A stretch of DNA of 42,154 nucleotides from a virus, in the IMG/VR virus record IMGVR_UViG_3300045988_021923, one strand, 5' to 3'. The notes under the pieces were generated by a model. It was not told the origin of the DNA and searched no databases. It saw nothing but the letters and a program-made list of their open reading frames with translations. A program made the translations under genes and the position numbers. Below are positions 29,471 through 42,154 of this stretch, one piece after another (position 1 is the stretch's first letter; each line of letters begins with the position of its first letter).

Positions 29471-29538
29471 AAGAACGCTGTCTTTTGTTCTTAACCTTGC
29501 CCCGTTCGGTGCTCCTACACCGGGCGGGGCGCTTTTTT
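29471..29538 (+). ncRNA. Candidate ~68-nt antisense small RNA
   Basis: Starts downstream of the candidate promoter. Contains hairpin AAGAAC-10 nt-GTTCTT and ends in a + oriented terminator: GCCCCGTTCGGTG-CTCCTA-CACCGGGCGGGGC (G-U pairs only on + strand RNA) followed by GCTTTTTT. Confidence 0.35.
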
Positions 29539-30202
29539 ATCCCGCATTCTGCCCCACCATGGGAACCGTTCGCATTCGTGCCAAACAATCCTTGACTTGC
29601 TGATACTCCATGCCGACATCAAGCAACACCGCAATATGGTTTTCCATGCTTGACACCGCCGCGATTTCGTCAGCGCTCATGTAATCGCTGGCAACCGCCG
29701 CTCTGTCGGCTCCGCGTTCCTCTCGTAACTGCCGGGCCGACTTGCCAAGTGCCGTGCGGTAAGCCAAATCCGTGTACTGGTTGTACTTGAATTTTTTGTG
29801 CGGGCTGTCCGGCAGGGCTTTGATAGCATCCGTCATCCCCAACCGAATAGGCTTGCGTTCTGCCTTGACCGTCTTAATGTTCAGCAGCTCTTTCCGCATG
29901 GCGAAAAACTGACGAACCAGCTCTTTCTTGAACTCAATGACCACTGGCGTATTCCGGAGAAACGTAAGCAAAAGTGTTGCCTGCTGCTCATTCAGGTGGT
30001 AAACCTTGACCATTTGTTGGCCGCCTCGTGTCTGCAAGGTTCGGATTTCAAATCCGACCCTTCCAAATTCCCGAAGGTCTTTTTCATGGCGCTGGATTAA
30101 CTTCTGCACTGTGTCCCGCTTTACGTCCGCACATTCCGCAATCACTTCCGATGTGGTAAACGGTTCTTCAGTGTTGGGGGCAAGATAAACAAGCTCGTTC
30201 AT
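29537..30202 (-). CDS. Rha-family phage regulatory protein with ORF6C-like C-terminal domain (221 aa)
   Basis: PFTTSEVIAECADVKRDTVQKLIQRHEKDLREFG...YHLNEQQATLLLTFLRNT matches the Rha-family N-terminal domain. Confidence 0.75.
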   Translation of the reverse strand: MNELVYLAPNTEEPFTTSEVIAECADVKRDTVQKLIQRHEKDLREFGRVGFEIRTLQTRGGQQMVKVYHLNEQQATLLLTFLRNTPVVIEFKKELVRQFFAMRKELLNIKTVKAERKPIRLGMTDAIKALPDSPHKKFKYNQYTDLAYRTALGKSARQLREERGADRAAVASDYMSADEIAAVSSMENHIAVLLDVGMEYQQVKDCLARMRTVPMVGQNAG

Positions 30203-32136: not shown

Positions 32137-32378
32137 CAATTAAAGGAAACTCAGCCCCGCCGCCTCTGCAACAACAGCGGGGCCGAGTGGCAAGCCTGTG
32201 TGGGGCTGGCTTGCTGCAAATAGAGCATAGCAAAATTGGGTTGGGTACGGCAATCGTCAAACGTGGGAACCCCTTGTTTACTTTATGCAACCTTAGCGGA
32301 CACACTAAAGTAATTTACAGTCTACACTATGATATTTGCCTACCCAAGTTGTGTTCAACAGTGTGGGGAGGTATTTTT

Positions 32379-32813
32379 TTGACTATTCAGGAAATGTGTA
32401 AGGAACGAAAAACTTCTTTGGGGATTACTTCGCAGGAAATAGCAGACCAATCAGGTGTTCCACTATCCACTGTGAACAATTTCTTCGCTCACGCCTCTAA
32501 GTCTCCACCGCTTTATACCGCTGCGCCAATTTGCGCGGTTTTGGGCGTGTCACTGGATGCGTATTTTGGCATTGGAGACCATTTAACCGCAACGGAAGAA
32601 ACCTTGCAGGCGGAAAAGGTCGGTCTGGAAAAGCGCTTATCCAACAAGCGGGAGACGATTGATGTGCAGAATCATACCATCAATGTGATGGAAAAGGGTC
32701 TGCGGATTCGCAACTGCGTGATTTTGGTTATGGGCGTAGCAATCGTCCTGTTGCTGTGCTGGTGCGTATATGTGGATATGCACGCGCTGAATATCGGTTT
32801 TTGGAGGGAATAA
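32379..32813 (+). CDS. XRE-family HTH protein with C-terminal transmembrane anchor (144 aa)
   Basis: TTG 32379 (GGGGAGG SD) or ATG 32394. ITSQEIADQSGVPLSTVNNFF, a coiled segment, then CVILVMGVAIVLLLCWCVYV. The stop overlaps the recombinase start (TAATG). Confidence 0.6.
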   Translation: MTIQEMCKERKTSLGITSQEIADQSGVPLSTVNNFFAHASKSPPLYTAAPICAVLGVSLDAYFGIGDHLTATEETLQAEKVGLEKRLSNKRETIDVQNHTINVMEKGLRIRNCVILVMGVAIVLLLCWCVYVDMHALNIGFWRE

Positions 32814-34117
32814 TGAGAGCTGCGTTATATATCCGCGTGTCCACCGAAGAACAGGCCAAGCAAGGTCTATCCCTCCCGGAACAGAGGGACGCTTTATCAA
32901 AATATGCTGACGCAAACAACATGGAAGTCATCGGCGTATACGAGGATGCCGGTATCAGCGCCCGAAAGCCGTACAAAAAGCGTCCGGCACTATTGCGCTT
33001 ACTTGAAGATTGCAATGCCGGGAAGATTGATGTAATTCTGTTTATCAAACTGGATAGATGGTTCCGCAATGTTTCCGGGTATTATGCAGTGCAAGACCAA
33101 TTAGACAAGTGCGGCGTCAAGTGGCAGGCAACACAAGAGGACTACGAAACGCGCACAGCATCCGGGCGGCTAAAAGTCAACATTATGTTATCTGTGGCGC
33201 AAGACGAAGCTGACCGCACCAGCGAACGAATTAAATTTATCAATGATGGCAAGCGAGCAAAAGGCCAGCCTACTAACGCAAAGGCTCCGCTGGGCCTTGT
33301 GGTAAAAGACCGGCAATATCAAATAGACCCTGATACCGCCGAAGCCGCAAAGGATATGTTTTCCGCATTTATCCGTCTGCGGGGGATTTTGCCCCTAAGA
33401 AAATATATGGCCGCTACGTGGGGAATAAATCGTTCGTATAGCAAATATGTTGGTCTTATCCAAAATCGGTTGTACATCGGAGAAGTATACGGTATTGCCG
33501 ATGCCTGCCCTGCACTAATCAACAAAGACGAATTTACACTCGCAAACGAATTGCTCCAACATCGGAGCCAGCGCGGGGCCAGCGCTTCACCTGACCGCAC
33601 ATATTTGTTTTCTGGCCTGTTGCATTGCCGCGAATGTGGAACCTCGATGCAATCGGAGACCGCGAAGAAAATATATACTTACTACCGCTGCCGAAAGCGT
33701 ATGCTGGATAATTCCGCTTGCCCTCATAATCGCCGTATCCGAGAAGATGTGTTGGAAGAATATTTACTAAGGGAAATCGAACATATCGCTACGGCCTACC
33801 ACGGAAAATACGAAAAAGCAGAAAAAAAGCCTGCCATAGCGGCAGACAAAATTAAACGAAAGATGCAGAAGCTAAAAGAACTTTACCTTGCAGACCTGAT
33901 TGATATTGAGGAATATCGAAAGGATTACGAGGATATGAAACGTAGCCTTGAAATTATGGAAGCGTCTCAGCCGCCTGCATTTGATGTCGGGGCGTTAAAG
34001 TCAGGGCTTGCGGAATATCCACACATGACGAAAGAACAAAAGAAAGGCTTTTGGACACGCACAATCCAGCGCATTGATGCTGATAATGACGGTGCGTTTT
34101 TTGTAACGCCTCGTTAG
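32813..34117 (+). CDS. Large serine recombinase (phage integrase), 434 aa
   Basis: MRAALYIRVSTEEQ...GLSLPEQ resolvase catalytic N-terminus, recombinase domain, and zinc ribbon CRECGTSM...YYRCRKR. Confidence 0.9.
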   Translation: MRAALYIRVSTEEQAKQGLSLPEQRDALSKYADANNMEVIGVYEDAGISARKPYKKRPALLRLLEDCNAGKIDVILFIKLDRWFRNVSGYYAVQDQLDKCGVKWQATQEDYETRTASGRLKVNIMLSVAQDEADRTSERIKFINDGKRAKGQPTNAKAPLGLVVKDRQYQIDPDTAEAAKDMFSAFIRLRGILPLRKYMAATWGINRSYSKYVGLIQNRLYIGEVYGIADACPALINKDEFTLANELLQHRSQRGASASPDRTYLFSGLLHCRECGTSMQSETAKKIYTYYRCRKRMLDNSACPHNRRIREDVLEEYLLREIEHIATAYHGKYEKAEKKPAIAADKIKRKMQKLKELYLADLIDIEEYRKDYEDMKRSLEIMEASQPPAFDVGALKSGLAEYPHMTKEQKKGFWTRTIQRIDADNDGAFFVTPR

Positions 34118-36919: not shown

Positions 36920-37300
36920 TCAATCATCCTCCTTGACCCAGTAATATAAGATTGTCTCGTTGCTGCTGTCCCAGCTATCCCAGATTACCCCGTCCTGTAC
37001 GCAGACTACGTGGCCGGACAGCGCCAAAATATACGTGCCTACCGGGTGATCGTTCGCAAACTGCCCCACCGTGTAGCAATCCGGGCAGGTGTCCGGCACG
37101 ATATACCGCTTGTACCCGATGCTGTGGAGATACCGCCCCCAGCAGGCATTGGCGGAGGGCATATCACCGTCAAGATACCCTTGGATGCACAATCGCAGAT
37201 ACGTCTCGCCCCAGTCCTTGCCGGTGGCCTTGGAGATAGCTCGCACGGTGCAGTCCCCTACATTTTTCCCACAGGGATTTTGGTTAAAGTACTCAAACAT
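36920..37300 (-). CDS. Putative papain-like cysteine peptidase-fold protein (126 aa)
   Basis: Trimmed to MFEYFNQNPCGKNVGDCTVRAISKATG (candidate catalytic Cys), with a later GHVVCV...DSWDS (candidate His/Asp). Assignment is inferential. Confidence 0.55.
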   Translation of the reverse strand: MFEYFNQNPCGKNVGDCTVRAISKATGKDWGETYLRLCIQGYLDGDMPSANACWGRYLHSIGYKRYIVPDTCPDCYTVGQFANDHPVGTYILALSGHVVCVQDGVIWDSWDSSNETILYYWVKEDD

Positions 37301-37415
37301 GGAACAGCTCCGCAAAATACACGTAGGTCCGCAGCTCCTCCGGGTCCGGGAACAGCCTTAAAATGTCCATTGCCATTTGCTCCGTGTAGCCGATGGCAAG
37401 CAGTCGGTCGTACAT
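37293..37415 (-). CDS. Small leader-position protein (40 aa)
   Basis: Only the last 40 codons of track ORF 37293..37898 are kept. AAGGAGG SD 7 nt before ATG 37415. The stop overlaps the next start by 8 nt. Confidence 0.45.
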   Translation of the reverse strand: MYDRLLAIGYTEQMAMDILRLFPDPEELRTYVYFAELFHV

Positions 37416-37447
37416 CGCGCACCTCCTTGTCTTGCCCTTATGGTAGC

Positions 37448-37474
37448 AAAAAACCGGGCAGCCAAACTGCCCGG
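37448..37474 (-). terminator. - strand hairpin plus U-run immediately upstream of the accessory operon RBS
   Basis: On the - strand: CCGGGCAG-TTTGG-CTGCCCGG followed by TTTTTTG. It ends ~30 nt before ATG 37415. Confidence 0.5.
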
Positions 37475-37505
37475 AAACTGCCTGTATTCTGCCCTCAAAC
37501 TGCCC
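37462..37505. repeat. Four tandem 11-bp repeats nnAAACTGCCC
   Basis: CCAAACTGCCC GGAAACTGCCT GTATTCTGCCC TCAAACTGCCC at exact 11-bp phasing. An inverted GGGCAG copy lies at 37456-37461. Confidence 0.9.
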
Positions 37506-37537
37506 AAAAAATATTTTGACTTTTTTGCTTTTTCTTC

Positions 37538-37566
37538 TTGACTTTACGCTAATATTAGCGTATAAT
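37538..37566 (+). promoter_or_regulatory. Promoter copy 1: TTGACT-17-TATAAT with 16-bp palindromic operator in the spacer
   Basis: The spacer contains ACGCTAATATTAGCGT. The 31-bp core is identical to 39484-39514. Confidence 0.75.
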
Positions 37567-37610
37567 AAGGATGTAAACAAGAGAGGGGAACACCCCGGGA
37601 GGAAATAAAA

Positions 37611-37961
37611 ATGAACTACAACAAGAGTGAGATCATGAAAGCCGCATGGACCCTTTACAGAACGGCTCAGAAGTGGGTCAACAAGCTCAGCTTCGGTGAG
37701 TGCCTCCGCCGCGCATGGGAAAACGCCAAGCGCACCCTTGAAGCCACCAAGAAACTCATGTCCAACGACTGCATGAAGGTCATCAACGGCGTTCGCCTTA
37801 GTCTCCGCCGCACCGTCGTAGCCGACTATGCGATGGGCTGGATCGTGACCGGCAAGACTTACGCCGCCCGCAAGGAGCTCAAGTCCGCAGGCTTTCACTG
37901 GGACCCCGAATCTTCCAACTGGTTTACCACCGACCGTAAAGTCGCCGAGTATTTTTGCTAA
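37611..37961 (+). CDS. Hypothetical protein (116 aa)
   Basis: GGGAGG SD. SEIMKAAWTLYR...SFGECLRRAW and a C-terminal GWIVTGKTYAARKELKSAGFHWD...NWF. Both modules are seen in phage/plasmid proteins of unknown function (recollection). Confidence 0.7.
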   Translation: MNYNKSEIMKAAWTLYRTAQKWVNKLSFGECLRRAWENAKRTLEATKKLMSNDCMKVINGVRLSLRRTVVADYAMGWIVTGKTYAARKELKSAGFHWDPESSNWFTTDRKVAEYFC

Positions 37962-37979
37962 TGAGAGAGGAGATCAAGC

Positions 37980-38435
37980 ATGACAACCTATTACGTTACC
38001 GCAGATCTTGACCGTGCGCCGACGGAGCAAGAGACAAAGGAGATCGGCGTACCGCACGCAAAAATTTTTCTTGGCCGCGTCAAGGCAATTATCTGCGCCG
38101 ACAGTATCAAGGACGCCTGCGCGCGAGGGAGTGAGTGCATTTCCGGCTGTATCAAAGAGGGCAGGACAATCAGCAATGTCGGCTGCATGCCGGTTGCCGC
38201 GGCAAAGGAAATGGGAGACGACGAGATCTACAAGGGCTACCCCACAACGACGTGGCTGCTGTATTACCGGCTTAAAGCCGGGCTGACGCAGGCACAGCTT
38301 TCGAAAGCGTCCGGCGTCAACATCCGCCAGATCCAGCGGGTGGAGCTGGGCGAGGCGGAGGCCGGAAACCTGTCCGCTAAAAATATTATTGCCCTGGCGG
38401 ACGCCTTGGGCGTGGACGTGAGGGCGTTGGTATAA
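37980..38435 (+). CDS. Protein with C-terminal XRE-family HTH domain (151 aa)
   Basis: LLYYRLKAGLTQAQLSKASGVNIRQIQRVELGE...IIALADALGVDVRAL. Confidence 0.7.
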   Translation: MTTYYVTADLDRAPTEQETKEIGVPHAKIFLGRVKAIICADSIKDACARGSECISGCIKEGRTISNVGCMPVAAAKEMGDDEIYKGYPTTTWLLYYRLKAGLTQAQLSKASGVNIRQIQRVELGEAEAGNLSAKNIIALADALGVDVRALV

Positions 38436-39466
38436 TGCGGCTCAAAAAATGTGCTAAATGCGGCAAGCTATTTAACACCGCCAAAAACGAGCAGACGCTG
38501 TGTGACGAGTGCGTTGCTACGGCCAAGTCCACCACCATCCGACCCCGGACCTGCCGCGAGTGCGGTGCTATTTTTGACGGTGGCCCTCGAGCGTGGTACT
38601 GCCCAGAATGCAGGAAGATTCGGGAGAAAGAGTCGGCCAAGCATTACAGGGACAATGGCCCATCACGCCCGCTCGGAAGCATTGACCGCTGTTCCGTCTG
38701 CGGTAAAGAGTATGTTGTCAATTCTGCGCGGCAGCGGTATTGCCCGGCCTGCGCTCCGGAAGCAATCCGGGAGGTTGACCGCGAGGCGTCGAAAAAATGG
38801 AACGCTGAAAATGGTTTTTACGACCGCACGCAATTAGAGCGGAGCGGCCAGAAAATATGCGTGATCTGCGGAAAACCTGTGCCACCCGGAACGCCTCGGG
38901 TAACTTGCTCAGATGAGTGCGACAAGCTCCGGATAAAATATAATCAGGACAAGGCGGAGATCAAGCGGGGCAATCGCAAATCTCCTACCACGGTTGAGCG
39001 GCTGGACAAGGAGCTTCCTCTGGCTCCGGTGGAGCTGACGCCGGAGATCATCAAGGAGTTAGAGGCTGACCTGCTGTCTGTTATTAAGCGCTGCCCGGAT
39101 TGCGGGCAGCTATTTGTCAAAAAAAGCAAAAATGCTCGGTTTTGCCGGGCTTGCGCCCTACAGCGTAGCCTGGAGAGCACCCAAAAGTCGAGTAATGAGC
39201 ATTACTATGCAGACGTGGAGGCGAGCCGGGCCAAGCGCCGGGAGGATTACGCAAAAAACAGAGAGGCCGTCCGAGCCTACCAGGCGGCATATTACGCCGC
39301 CCACAAGGACGAGATAAAGCAGCGCCGCCAGCAAAACCAGCAAAAAAAGGCCGGAGACAAGGAGGCTCTCAAAGCCTATCAGGCCAAGTATTACGCCCAA
39401 AACAAGGAGCGCATCAAGGCCCAGCGCAAGGCCAAAAAGGAGCGGGACGCCGCTGAAAAAAAATAA
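38435..39466 (+). CDS. Multi-zinc-ribbon protein (five CxxC-x(10-14)-CxxC units) with C-terminal YYAxxK(D/E)xIK repeats (343 aa)
   Basis: The start overlaps the upstream stop (TAATG). Five units, for example CAKCG..CDEC, CRECG..CPEC, CSVCG..CPAC, CVICG..CSDEC, CPDCG..CRAC. Basic repeat tail. Confidence 0.7.
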   Translation: MRLKKCAKCGKLFNTAKNEQTLCDECVATAKSTTIRPRTCRECGAIFDGGPRAWYCPECRKIREKESAKHYRDNGPSRPLGSIDRCSVCGKEYVVNSARQRYCPACAPEAIREVDREASKKWNAENGFYDRTQLERSGQKICVICGKPVPPGTPRVTCSDECDKLRIKYNQDKAEIKRGNRKSPTTVERLDKELPLAPVELTPEIIKELEADLLSVIKRCPDCGQLFVKKSKNARFCRACALQRSLESTQKSSNEHYYADVEASRAKRREDYAKNREAVRAYQAAYYAAHKDEIKQRRQQNQQKKAGDKEALKAYQAKYYAQNKERIKAQRKAKKERDAAEKK

Positions 39467-39485
39467 ATTATTTTGCTTTTCTCTC

Positions 39486-39514
39486 TTGACTTTACGCTAA
39501 TATTAGCGTATAAT
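39486..39514 (+). promoter_or_regulatory. Promoter copy 2: TTGACT-17-TATAAT with the same palindromic operator
   Basis: Identical 31-bp core CTTGACTTTACGCTAATATTAGCGTATAAT, with a similar leader and hairpin before the SD. Confidence 0.75.
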
Positions 39515-39555
39515 GAGAGCATAAAGAGAGGGGCACAGCCCGGGAGGTAAAAATC

Positions 39556-39876
39556 ATGACGTACATTAGCAGCCAGCATTACATTGACCCGGAAATCGTT
39601 GAGGCCAAAAAAGCGGAGCTTGTAGACGTGTTTGAGGTTGTTATCCCTTGCACTTACGTTGGCGTTATTGATGGCGTGGAATACGCAATGCAAAACGATA
39701 AGCATCATACTCTGGCAGCCGCCAAAGAGCTTGGCATCCCTGTTGTCTTTGACGTCTCCGATGACGCCGAAGGCCTCGCTGGCGAGGAGCTCCTCGAAGC
39801 CCGTTATAATGACGGAGACTATTACAATGTTGAGACCAGCAATCCCATTGATGAGCAGTTTGACCTGATCTGGTAA
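39556..39876 (+). CDS. Strongly acidic hypothetical protein (106 aa)
   Basis: GGGAGG SD. About a quarter of the residues are Asp/Glu, concentrated in the C-terminal half. Confidence 0.65.
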   Translation: MTYISSQHYIDPEIVEAKKAELVDVFEVVIPCTYVGVIDGVEYAMQNDKHHTLAAAKELGIPVVFDVSDDAEGLAGEELLEARYNDGDYYNVETSNPIDEQFDLIW

Positions 39877-39885
39877 GCCAAATAA

Positions 39886-39922
39886 GCAAGAGGGCGTGTC
39901 CGAATCGGACACGCCCTCTTGC
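39886..39922. terminator. Bidirectional terminator (17-bp perfect stem, 3-nt loop)
   Basis: GCAAGAGGGCGTGTCCG-AAT-CGGACACGCCCTCTTGC lies between convergent genes. Confidence 0.8.
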
Positions 39923-40158
39923 TATCCTTTGATATCGTCCGCGATCTTGGCATAGGCACGCCGCCGGATCTTGGCAAGCCCGTCCACGCTGACGTGGAGC
40001 AGCGCCGCCGCCTGTAGGCAGCTCTGGCCGTGGACGTCCACCGCCAGCACCGCCGTCTCCTCGTCAGGCGGCAAGCCTACCAGCCGGACGGCCTGCGCCG
40101 CCCGGGCCGGGGCCATAGATGACAACAGCGCCCGGATCTCTCGGTTTTGTTTTTCCAT
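39922..40158 (-). CDS. Sigma-70 region-4-like small HTH regulator (78 aa)
   Basis: DEETAVLAVDVHGQSCLQAAALLHVSVDGLAKIRRRAYAKI resembles region 4 of ECF sigma factors / small phage late regulators. Confidence 0.6.
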   Translation of the reverse strand: MEKQNREIRALLSSMAPARAAQAVRLVGLPPDEETAVLAVDVHGQSCLQAAALLHVSVDGLAKIRRRAYAKIADDIKG

Positions 40159-40227: not shown

Positions 40228-41247
40228 TTAGCCCGCCCAGTCGGCGCGGGCCTCCCGGACGTCGATGTGGGTAAAACTCTTGTAGACGCCCACCCCGCCC
40301 CAATCGGGCATAAGCGTCCGCGCAAACGCCGCCACGGCCTCCGGCGTCTGCCCCTTGACCACAATATCCGCCGCCGTGCCATAGCAGTGCTGGCTGCGAG
40401 CCACGCCGCCCACCTTGGCGTTGTACTGCGGCGTCCGGTAGGCACTGTGAATGACCACCGGAACGCCAAAGTGACTGCGGATGCTCTGCAAGACCATCAC
40501 CAGCCGGGGGGCTACCAGAACGGAATCGGAGCTATCCTTGCAGGCAAATTCTTTCACTGTAAAGTTTGTGGACAGCTTCTTGCCGCCGTCCTTCGCCTTG
40601 GAATAGGCGTTGATCTCTACCATAGGTTTCTCTCCTTCCGGTTCGTGTGCGTCCCCGCTTTTCTTTTTCCACACCAGGAAGAACGGGATCACCCGCCCAT
40701 CCCCGGTGAAGCCATTGCCGTCCCTGCCCATGAAGCAGGTAGACCCGCCGCCGTCCATCATAATGGCGTTGTCCCAGCCGGACGCGGCCAGCAGGTCACG
40801 GAGCTGTTCCGGTGTCCGCCGGTCACGGCTCACGTAGTAGGCGAACCGCCCATCCTTGGTGCCGATGGCCGTTCGCGGGGCTTTGTACTTCATGTCCGCC
40901 CCGCAGTGGATAGGGCTGATCTTCTTGCCGTCGATGATGAGGTGAACGCACTCCATGTAGTTTGCGTCGCTGTTGGGCACGGTTTTCACGCCGAAGTCCG
41001 CCGGGGTGTTCCAGCTGATGGCCCACGCCCGGTATGCCGGGGCTTTGTAAACCTTCCCATCTGCTTTCAGGTGGCAGGCGGGCTGCTGGTTCCGCAGGAA
41101 AATGGAGCCATTGCATATGGCGTCCCCGCCAGCCTCCGCCAGCATCTTTTTCAGGTTGGCCGTGGTGGAGCAGAGACGCCGCCGATTGAAATAGATTTTC
41201 AAAAATTGGAGGTCGAAGAGCGGGACAGTGCCCGCTCTCGTCGTCAT
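40228..41247 (-). CDS. Two-domain endolysin: N-terminal phosphodiester-glycosidase (NAGPA/DUF2233-like) plus C-terminal Peptidase_M15 domain (339 aa)
   Basis: N-terminal: AICNGSIFL...PRTAIGTKDGRFAYYVSRD...AIMMDGGGST. C-terminal: HSAYRTPQYNAKVGGVARSQHCYGTAADI...HIDV. ATGA overlap with the holin gene. Confidence 0.8.
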   Translation of the reverse strand: MTTRAGTVPLFDLQFLKIYFNRRRLCSTTANLKKMLAEAGGDAICNGSIFLRNQQPACHLKADGKVYKAPAYRAWAISWNTPADFGVKTVPNSDANYMECVHLIIDGKKISPIHCGADMKYKAPRTAIGTKDGRFAYYVSRDRRTPEQLRDLLAASGWDNAIMMDGGGSTCFMGRDGNGFTGDGRVIPFFLVWKKKSGDAHEPEGEKPMVEINAYSKAKDGGKKLSTNFTVKEFACKDSSDSVLVAPRLVMVLQSIRSHFGVPVVIHSAYRTPQYNAKVGGVARSQHCYGTAADIVVKGQTPEAVAAFARTLMPDWGGVGVYKSFTHIDVREARADWAG

Positions 41248-41693
41248 GTCCCGGCCTCCTGCTTGCCCTCGTCGCTGGCCTGCCGGATGGCGTCCAGCAT
41301 ATTCTTCACAAAGGCCGGGTAGGGAACGCCCATAATGGCCGTGTTCTCTAAAATACTCAATCCCTCATTGGCGATGAAGAACATACAAACCGCGTCTCTC
41401 ACAAAGTCGCTGGATGTAGCTTGGTCTAACAGCGCCCCCATCCAGACAAGCGCCAGTTCTACGCACTTCTTCGCAAGACCCTTGAAGCCTGCATCGGAAC
41501 TCAGCGCCCCGGTGCTGCTCTTCCCGGACTTGTGCCAGATCGCCGCCACCAGCCAGCCCGTGGCGTAATCCAGCACCATAAAGCAGATCAGCACTTTCAG
41601 CGCCATATCCAAGCCGCCCAAAGCCTGCGCGATGACGGAGCCGGTTGTTGCCAGCGCCGCCAGAATCAGATTTTTAATATGTACTGCGTTCAT
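41244..41693 (-). CDS. Holin (phage_holin_4_1 / toxin secretion-phage lysis holin family), 149 aa
   Basis: Multiple TM helices. LICFMVLDYATGWLVA...KKCVELALV...FFIANEGLSILEN matches the family signature. Confidence 0.8.
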   Translation of the reverse strand: MNAVHIKNLILAALATTGSVIAQALGGLDMALKVLICFMVLDYATGWLVAAIWHKSGKSSTGALSSDAGFKGLAKKCVELALVWMGALLDQATSSDFVRDAVCMFFIANEGLSILENTAIMGVPYPAFVKNMLDAIRQASDEGKQEAGT

Positions 41694-42046: not shown

Positions 42047-42068
42047 GGTATGTACCCCTTTCAAATTT

Positions 42069-42154
42069 ACGGTTGATTATTCAACCGGTTTCAACTGTTC
42101 GGTTGATTATTCAACCGGTTTCAACTGTTCGGTTGATTATTCAACCGGTTTCAA
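42069..42154. repeat. Two full and one truncated (26 nt) copies of the 30-bp unit seen at 1-60
   Basis: Direct reading. Copies at 42069-42098 (first 2 nt differ), 42099-42128 and 42129-42154. Confidence 0.95.

Follow-up and report, generated by a model that had tools for sequence, protein, structure and literature searches.

Why would a phage keep the same promoter twice in front of neighbouring genes, with a perfect palindrome filling the spacer of each copy, and which protein reads that palindrome? The question arises from IMG/VR record IMGVR_UViG_3300045988_021923, a stretch of 42,154 nt of viral DNA (hereafter the window, meaning the whole stretch analysed) from a temperate phage. An earlier note on this DNA had pointed to two similar segments, 37523-37610 and 39471-39555, as promoter-operator-leader copies through which one repressor could switch two transcription units. 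Our analysis indicates that the segments are probably copies of a portable promoter-operator-leader module heading an accessory locus of the acr-aca type (anti-CRISPR and anti-CRISPR-associated genes), in which an autorepressor with an XRE-type helix-turn-helix (HTH) domain would block both promoters; the function of the locus is probably anti-defence. The carriers are temperate phages of Flavonifractor and other Oscillospiraceae. Beyond the earlier description, the analysis adds that the module is widespread and portable, that its cargo is swappable, that it matches acr-aca loci and that its palindrome is 18 bp long.

A repeated promoter with a palindrome in its spacer

The two segments are 84% identical (75 of 89 alignment columns) and share an exact block of 31 bp at 37536-37566 and 39484-39514, which bears out the claim of two repeats of about 85 nt with an identical core. 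The 30-mer CTTGACTTTACGCTAATATTAGCGTATAAT has two exact copies in the window, both on the + strand (37537-37566 and 39485-39514), and found no match in 100 dinucleotide-preserving shuffles with up to three mismatches permitted. Each block holds a near-consensus promoter on the + strand: P1 (37538-37566) consists of a -35 box TTGACT at 37538-37543, a 17-nt spacer and a -10 box TATAAT at 37561-37566, and P2 (39486-39514) has the same boxes at 39486-39491 and 39509-39514, again 17 nt apart. These are the top sigma-70 matches in the 34-42 kb region of the window, with 11 of 12 consensus positions, and an identical copy of the P1 29-mer is found in 7 viral contigs. In both copies the spacer is filled by a perfect palindrome, as the earlier note had stated; the length of 16 bp given there falls short, since the palindrome extends to 18 bp, TACGCTAATATTAGCGTA. 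It lies at 37545-37562 (operator O1) and, with the same sequence, at 39493-39510 (operator O2), its last two bases being the first two of the -10 box. The 16-bp form, ACGCTAATATTAGCGT, is exact at 37546-37561 and 39494-39509 and has no third site in the whole window at up to three mismatches, and the half-site ACGCTAAT occurs nowhere else in the window, including the lysogeny region at 29-33 kb.

Upstream of the -35 box of P1, a T-rich tract resembling an UP element (37523-37537, + strand) forms the left edge of the repeat. It aligns with a second tract at 39471-39485 on the same strand, which starts 5 nt past the stop codon of a 343-aa gene, and such a tract precedes the -35 box in most related cassettes too. 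The two-promoter arrangement is rare, being seen only in the window and in the related loci L006/L026 and L055/L093. A fresh tandem duplication was considered as its origin and rejected, as the two leaders are distinct alleles that also circulate separately: that of copy 1 matches the leader of locus L001, and that of copy 2 matches those of L002 and of the second copy in L006. Judged by these matches, each copy represents its own circulating allele of the cassette. The closest relatives of the window are unannotated human faecal phage records, with no close named phage among them; of the named phages, Flavonifractor phage Cormatin comes closest to the cassette, with about 72% identity.

The spacer sequence of sigma-70 promoters is normally not conserved. 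Over 149 promoter instances of this cassette, comprising 23 distinct 29-mers, ten spacer positions are nevertheless invariant (11-12, 14, 16-19 and 21-23 of the 29-mer), as is the -35 box; the spacer measures 17 nt in all 23 variants, and the -10 hexamer takes eight forms. Because the ten spacer positions are fixed while the -10 box varies, selection acts on the spacer sequence, with the palindrome as a symmetric site. The commonest variant, TACGCCAATATTGGCGTA, present in 15 loci, is altered in both half-sites, and in these loci the recognition helix of the XRE-HTH protein is always SGIYIRQIQKVESGE in place of SGVNIRQIQRVELGE, a pairing that is suggestive of protein-DNA co-variation. In addition, 14 loci and phage Cormatin carry a second palindrome 31-32 bp upstream, at a distance of about three helical turns. 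As this second site lies outside the promoter, promoter sequence alone does not account for the motif.

Candidate readers of the palindrome

The earlier note had proposed as shared repressor the XRE-HTH protein encoded at 37980-38435, and comparative genomics makes this the best-supported reading, through a co-occurrence of gene and operator that holds in both directions. In the forward direction, 80 viral loci were chosen solely by homology to the 66-aa HTH domain and searched upstream, on the same strand, for the palindrome (up to four mismatches) inside TTGACx-17-TAnnnT. The palindrome-in-promoter was found in 77 of the 80, at 350-1050 nt from the HTH gene, and the contigs of the remaining three end 183-306 nt upstream of the HTH match. 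The reverse search, with the exact 18-mer, yielded 72 viral stretches, 70 of them in promoter context. The HTH gene lies 350-1050 nt downstream in 60 of these 70; nine others end less than 650 nt past the promoter, and the last is a second promoter copy with the HTH gene upstream. Every evaluable promoter copy found by the 18-mer thus has an HTH gene downstream, and the HTH protein is the sole protein always present with the operator. The two stretches that lack promoter context (L131 and L147) come from one 176-kb contig, IMGVR_UViG_3300049793_000301, which contains the exact 18-mer three times with no HTH gene nearby, two of the copies being 521 bp apart (L131).

The candidate autorepressor, a protein of 151 aa encoded on the + strand, combines an N-terminal alpha/beta domain (residues 1-71) with a C-terminal XRE HTH (about 92-143; HTH_3, E=4e-10). 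Its AlphaFold2 model (predicted local distance difference test score, pLDDT, 93) shows an N-terminal beta-alpha-beta-alpha-beta domain followed by a five-helix HTH. The nearest solved folds are the two-domain Neisseria prophage regulator NGO0477 (3kxa), C.AhdI and C.BclI, together with the 434 and P22 repressors; in Foldseek, the HTH superposes on the 434 and P22 c2 repressors and on C.AhdI and C.BclI with a root-mean-square deviation of 1.2-1.6 Å over about 59 residues. C proteins and phage repressors are dimers that read palindromes, and XRE HTH dimers are the classic readers of palindromes of 14-18 bp. The protein has 773 homologues, some of them annotated from Flavonifractor plautii. At least three kinds of N-terminal module are joined to its HTH domain: one is an alpha/beta domain of 90 aa, another a Cys-rich knuckle of 30 aa (CX6CX2C...CH) and a third a distinct domain of 95 aa (L049). 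The 116-aa family to which the first gene of the window belongs (37611-37961, + strand) is invariably found with the 151-aa form (29 loci), which suggests that the two are a functional pair.

A short form of the HTH protein, 93 aa long, is listed verbatim in Table S5 of AcaFinder, among 1,422 predicted Aca families (PMC9765179). The representative, uvig_171045:6593-6874, is 82% identical to the HTH domain of the window over 61 residues and has the same recognition helix, so that the listed family is the same protein family as here, the listing itself being a prediction by guilt-by-association only. It comes without the operator, the promoter, the leader, the cargo catalogue and the two-promoter arrangement.

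If the XRE-HTH protein is set aside, the palindrome could be read by another regulator, either a CI-like or Cro-like protein of the phage or a host factor, and control of the cassette would then lie with the lysis-lysogeny switch or a host regulon in place of the cassette itself. We consider this unlikely. In its favour, the locus lies in a lysogeny-proximal region, the window encodes further HTH proteins (a 208-aa RstR-like open reading frame, ORF, at 32187-32813, and a 221-aa Rha-like ORF at 29537-30202), and co-occurrence alone cannot prove which protein is the binder. The phage-encoded version is nonetheless difficult to reconcile with the lack of any further palindrome or half-site in the window, the 29-33 kb region included. 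Besides, relatives with an identical operator either lack the CI-like protein of the window or have one that is no more than 47-67% identical to it, and Cormatin-type loci occupy a different genomic neighbourhood. As for a host factor, 596 Gb of bacterial and archaeal genomes contain the exact 18-mer 14 times. Three of these occurrences are the cassette itself, as prophage, in metagenome-assembled genomes of Oscillospiraceae or Clostridiales, and the other 11 stand in unrelated non-promoter contexts with no HTH gene near, where about 9 are expected by chance. Outside prophage cassettes the 18-mer is therefore at chance level, which speaks against its use in a host regulon.

A second alternative, which we regard as quite unlikely, assigns the palindrome or the leader hairpin to the Cys-rich product of the third gene, a 343-aa zinc-ribbon protein (38435-39466, + strand; DZR_2, E=2.5e-7), and leaves the HTH protein with another target. 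Zinc ribbons can bind nucleic acids, and a Cys-rich third gene is present in most loci. It is the usual third gene of the cassette without being universal: it belongs to several unrelated types and is missing from L030, L034-36, L050 and L075, where the operator is unchanged. The folds nearest to the HTH domain, moreover, are those of C.AhdI, C.BclI and the 434 and P22 repressors, that is, of classic palindrome readers.

Two further readings are very improbable. In the first, unit 1 would be a type II toxin-antitoxin module of the HigBA or HicAB kind, autoregulated through the palindrome. The order of a small basic protein (116 aa; isoelectric point, pI, about 9.9 in its family) and an XRE HTH protein fits such a module, profile searches relate the HTH to HipB and HigA, and toxin-antitoxin promoters also carry palindromic operators. 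That similarity is, however, generic to the XRE fold; the 116-aa protein matches no toxin family in Pfam, NCBIfam or PADLOC and no solved toxin fold; and relatives keep the HTH but have, in first place, genes for unrelated proteins, most of them acidic (pI about 4). With partners that are interchangeable and acidic, and neither a toxin family nor a toxin fold, the toxin-antitoxin reading was rejected. In the second, there would be no dedicated regulator at all: the promoters would be strong and constitutive, and the palindrome kept by recent descent or for its DNA structure. Many of the loci do belong to closely related gut phages from few metagenomes, and the promoter is workable without any factor. 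Such a reading leaves unexplained why the -10 box, leader and flanks vary while the ten spacer positions never do, why a frequent variant changes both half-sites symmetrically, and why a palindrome recurs upstream of the promoter in 14 loci and in Cormatin.

Finally, MerR-type promoters need a spacer of 19-20 nt, and activation from the palindrome by the HTH protein in the manner of MerR or of a C protein, although C.AhdI and C.BclI are the best structural matches of its domain, is extremely improbable and was rejected on spacer length (17 nt in all 23 variants) and promoter strength, the hexamers being already consensus at optimal spacing, a dimer within the spacer clashing with sigma, and restriction-modification genes being absent from the window in Pfam and PADLOC searches.

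Proposed control, leaders and exchanged cargo

With the XRE-HTH protein as the preferred reader, control of the locus can be proposed as follows. A near-consensus sigma-A promoter at each copy would give a burst of expression when the DNA enters the cell. The XRE-HTH protein would then bind the 18-bp palindrome as a dimer and, since this site fills the 17-nt spacer completely and reaches into the -10 box, would exclude RNA polymerase from the promoter. Unit 1, which encodes the repressor, would thereby come under negative autoregulation, and unit 2, with its 106-aa gene, would be repressed in trans. The two units, 37611-39466 and 39556-39876, contain the ORFs that the earlier note had placed there.

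Between promoter and cargo, both copies have a short leader whose G:C hairpin folds as previously described. The predicted leader of unit 1 spans 37573-37610 on the + strand, from a putative transcription start site (TSS) at about 37573 (±2), and contains a 4-bp stem GGGG/CCCC (37585-37588/37593-37596; -6.8 kcal/mol) and the Shine-Dalgarno (SD) sequence GGGAGG at 37597-37602. That of unit 2 (39521-39555, + strand) has the 4-bp stem GGGC/GCCC (39531-39534/39538-39541; -6.2 kcal/mol) and GGGAGG at 39542-39547. Both stems end at the base before the SD sequence (37596/37597 and 39541/39542). The arrangement is general: the 24 nt that precede GGAGG reach a folding energy of -3 kcal/mol or below in 58 of 62 distinct leaders, most of which form a hairpin of 3-5 G:C pairs ending 1-2 nt before the SD core, and the mean folding energy is -5.6 kcal/mol, as against -2.5 for shuffled sequences (median z -2.2). 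This support comes from folding each sequence against its shuffles, since a MAFFT alignment lost the stem register through indels and register shifts. Stems differ among leaders (GGGG/CCCC, GGGC/GCCC, GAGG/CCUC, GGGGC/GCCCC, GCGGG/CCCGC), a diversity that is consistent with maintained pairing. A search of both strands of 37300-40000 gave no Rfam match at E up to 1, and the stem sequence is unrelated to the operator.

Most likely, the hairpin stabilises the mRNA or keeps the SD sequence accessible and insulated in front of varying cargo; a role as translational operator, as in Aca2, is also plausible by analogy. A further elaboration, which we consider doubtful, would add a second layer of control like that of Aca2 and Aca1, with the HTH protein (or the zinc-ribbon protein) also binding the hairpin abutting the SD sequence and repressing translation of the cargo, and with the fixed arms of the cassette serving as an integron-like platform for the exchange of anti-defence genes in gut Oscillospiraceae phages. 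On this view, the variable N-terminal modules joined to the HTH could act as effectors or sensors, by analogy with AcrIIA1.

The genes behind the leader are themselves variable. In the window the order is cargo, HTH gene, third gene, and it is the same in about 80 relatives, where at least 11 unrelated families of first gene stand behind the same promoter-leader, mostly small ORFans with acidic products (pI about 4). Most cargo families have no Pfam, PHROG-function or NCBIfam assignment. In the window, the first cargo protein is basic, and its AlphaFold2 model (pLDDT 89) has no significant fold match in PDB, BFVD returning only an uncharacterised orthologue. The second, encoded at 39556-39876 on the + strand, is an acidic protein of 106 aa (pI 4.05) that belongs to phrog_4807, of unknown function; in the main cassette of L038, a gene of this family comes first. 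Elsewhere, one acidic family of 119 aa (first gene of L050, about 2523-2880) has a ParB/Srx-like N-terminal domain that matches several ParB-like PHROGs (best E=7.8e-6) and TIGR00180 (E=0.005), an unusual stand-alone form in an accessory locus; the 106-aa protein has no similarity to this ParB-like family or to any solved structure. The locus was also considered as a defence system, a reading that was rejected, PADLOC giving only generic HTH matches.

How cargo is replaced can be read from L006 (IMGVR_UViG_3300030675_000025), which shares 98.5% identity with the window between 32069 and 37615, a position just beyond the start codon of the first gene. There the homology breaks, an unrelated 460 nt standing in place of 661 nt of the window, and it resumes at 38277, where the HTH domain starts, at 91% identity as far as 40628. 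The swap also exchanges the N-terminal module of the regulator, L006 having the 93-aa Cys-knuckle form and the window the 151-aa form. The swap thus has two conserved arms, the promoter-leader on the left and the HTH-domain DNA on the right, and it is between such arms that phages would exchange cargo.

Several points weigh against this account of an anti-defence locus under a shared autorepressor. The sequence layout, its conservation, the co-occurrence and the cargo exchange are observed directly; protein binding, the sign of regulation, the TSS, the part played by the hairpin and an anti-defence function are inferred. Many loci are closely related, so that their counts overstate the number of independent events. 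The co-variation of operator and recognition helix is essentially one event at the level of a clade, and one-sided T-to-C changes are tolerated in several loci whose helix is the usual one. Taken singly, the hairpins of the window are weak (z about -1.2 for the whole leader, and -2.5 to -2.7 for the 14-mers against shuffles); at 3-5 bp they are not alignable in one register, and their covariation is anecdotal. Unit 2 may also be transcribed from P1, because no convincing terminator was found between unit 1 and P2, which begins 19 nt past the stop codon. As to cargo, the 116-aa protein, which has no Pfam family, resembles AcrIIA3 over its N-terminal 50 aa (NCBIfam NF033948, E=7e-8), as do all 26 aligned relatives; yet the match lies below the cutoff (32.5 vs 70 bits) and covers only positions 1-60 of the 119 in the model, which makes it a domain-level similarity to AcrIIA3 and not membership of NF033948. 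Among the other cargo families, none has a match to a known anti-defence protein, and the AcaFinder entry has neither an AcaHMM hit nor an associated known Acr.

In the window, the + strand cassette sits between the lysis genes, with a holin at 41244-41693 and an endolysin at 40228-41247 (both on the - strand), and the integrase, a serine recombinase (32756-34117), a position that favours the acr-aca reading. To its left, small genes grouped on the - strand and starting at 37415 run divergently from it. Four direct repeats CTGCC(C/T), at 37466, 37478, 37490 and 37501 and thus 11-12 bp apart, lie between the 37415 gene start and P1; the first is within a terminator-like hairpin of the - strand (37454-37474 plus a T-run), just upstream of the SD sequence of that gene. 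Other lineages have TTTGGTCA direct repeats in this place, and through the CTGCC(C/T) repeats a regulator may act on the - strand operon. To its right, a strong hairpin of 18 pairs (39885-39923) ends both the cassette and the convergent - strand lysis operon. Between this terminator and the endolysin, the - strand encodes a 78-aa protein (39922-40158) with an HTH resembling sigma-70 region 4 (Sigma70_r4_2, E=1.3e-4), a homologue of which adjoins the cassette in 27 of 36 long related loci.

Two other features of the window concern RNA folding and genome form. RNA reading through from unit 1 (39467-39558) has a predicted fold of -27 kcal/mol (z = -3.65), in which the T-rich tract at 39471-39480 would pair with GGAGGUAAAA, in the SD region of the 106-aa gene. 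As transcripts started at P2 lack the pairing tract, P2 may, on this prediction, be needed for translation and not for transcription alone. The two ends of the window share a 30-bp tandem array (TTTCAACTGTTCGGTTGATTATTCAACCGG), with 3.2 copies at the right end (42059-42154) and two more at the left (1-60), so that the window is probably a circular or terminally redundant genome. Each 30-bp unit contains the inverted repeat GGTTG-ATTATT-CAACC and has the look of an iteron or packaging site.

Relation to anti-CRISPR loci and other known systems

If the proposal holds, a single 18-bp operator and its HTH gene mark the locus in well over a hundred gut-phage contigs, and at least 11 families of small, mostly acidic proteins can be shortlisted as possible anti-defence proteins for Flavonifractor and other Oscillospiraceae as hosts. 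To our knowledge, essentially no anti-defence proteins are known for these hosts. The near-isogenic pair formed by the window and L006 shows directly how cargo swaps between start codon and HTH-domain DNA, and the locus would offer a Clostridia example of Aca-type repressors governing several neighbouring operons through repeated motifs, with leaders that have conserved hairpins. The concept is unchanged, since this regulatory logic was known before from acr-aca loci; the locus is valuable mainly because it points to candidate anti-defence genes in phages of Oscillospiraceae.

Apart from the AcaFinder family, three kinds of known system bear comparison with the cassette. The 434 and P22 c2 repressors and the C proteins C.AhdI and C.BclI have the same XRE HTH fold and are dimers reading palindromes of 14-18 bp that overlap promoters. 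They serve the lysis-lysogeny decision or the timing of restriction-modification and work from operator arrays, whereas here a single operator in the spacer stands before accessory genes.

A second system is the locus controlled by AcrIIA1 in temperate phages of Listeria, where a bifunctional HTH protein is at once autorepressor and Cas9 inhibitor (PMC9410906). The cassette resembles it in belonging to a temperate phage of Firmicutes, in having a two-domain HTH protein of about 150 aa that is proposed to repress through a palindrome, and in the AcrIIA3-like N-terminus of its first gene product, acrIIA3 being among the genes of the Listeria loci. The Listeria anti-CRISPR locus also adjoins lysis genes, as the cassette does here. 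Unlike AcrIIA1, the protein has its HTH at the C-terminus, in reversed domain order, and PDB searches revealed no sequence similarity between the two.

The closest parallel is with acr-aca operons, which have been described for Aca1 of Pseudomonas phage JBD30, Aca2 of Pectobacterium phage ZF40 and Aca10-14 (PMC9410906, PMC6765145, PMC13551039). A profile of 29 HTH homologues, run against all PDB sequences at E up to 10, recovered HipB, 434 Cro and repressor, C proteins and HigA, and no chain named Aca or AcrIIA1; judged by this profile and by the AcaHMM field of Table S5, and not by direct comparison with Aca sequences, the HTH has no detectable membership of the named families Aca1-Aca12. Differences from these operons lie in the cargo, which here includes no validated Acr; in the regulator, which in many members carries an extra N-terminal domain or a Cys-rich knuckle; and in the operator, which lies wholly upstream of the putative TSS and would thus be outside the unit-1 RNA, in which a G:C stem abuts the SD sequence.

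Promoters of published acr-aca operons are near consensus, and the core promoter always contains the inverted repeat (PMC9410906). A second DNA motif lies upstream in about 40% of aca1 operons, conserved hairpins of the 5' untranslated region (UTR) are bound by Aca1 and Aca2, and neighbouring operons are often preceded by repeats of the Aca motif (PMC13551039). The locus described here is likewise a phage locus with an HTH gene downstream of a small gene and an inverted repeat in a strong core promoter. It shares with acr-aca operons the variable small genes that come first, the optional second repeat upstream, the 5'-UTR hairpin and the motif repeated before a neighbouring operon; all of these architectural features are present in the cassette family of the window.

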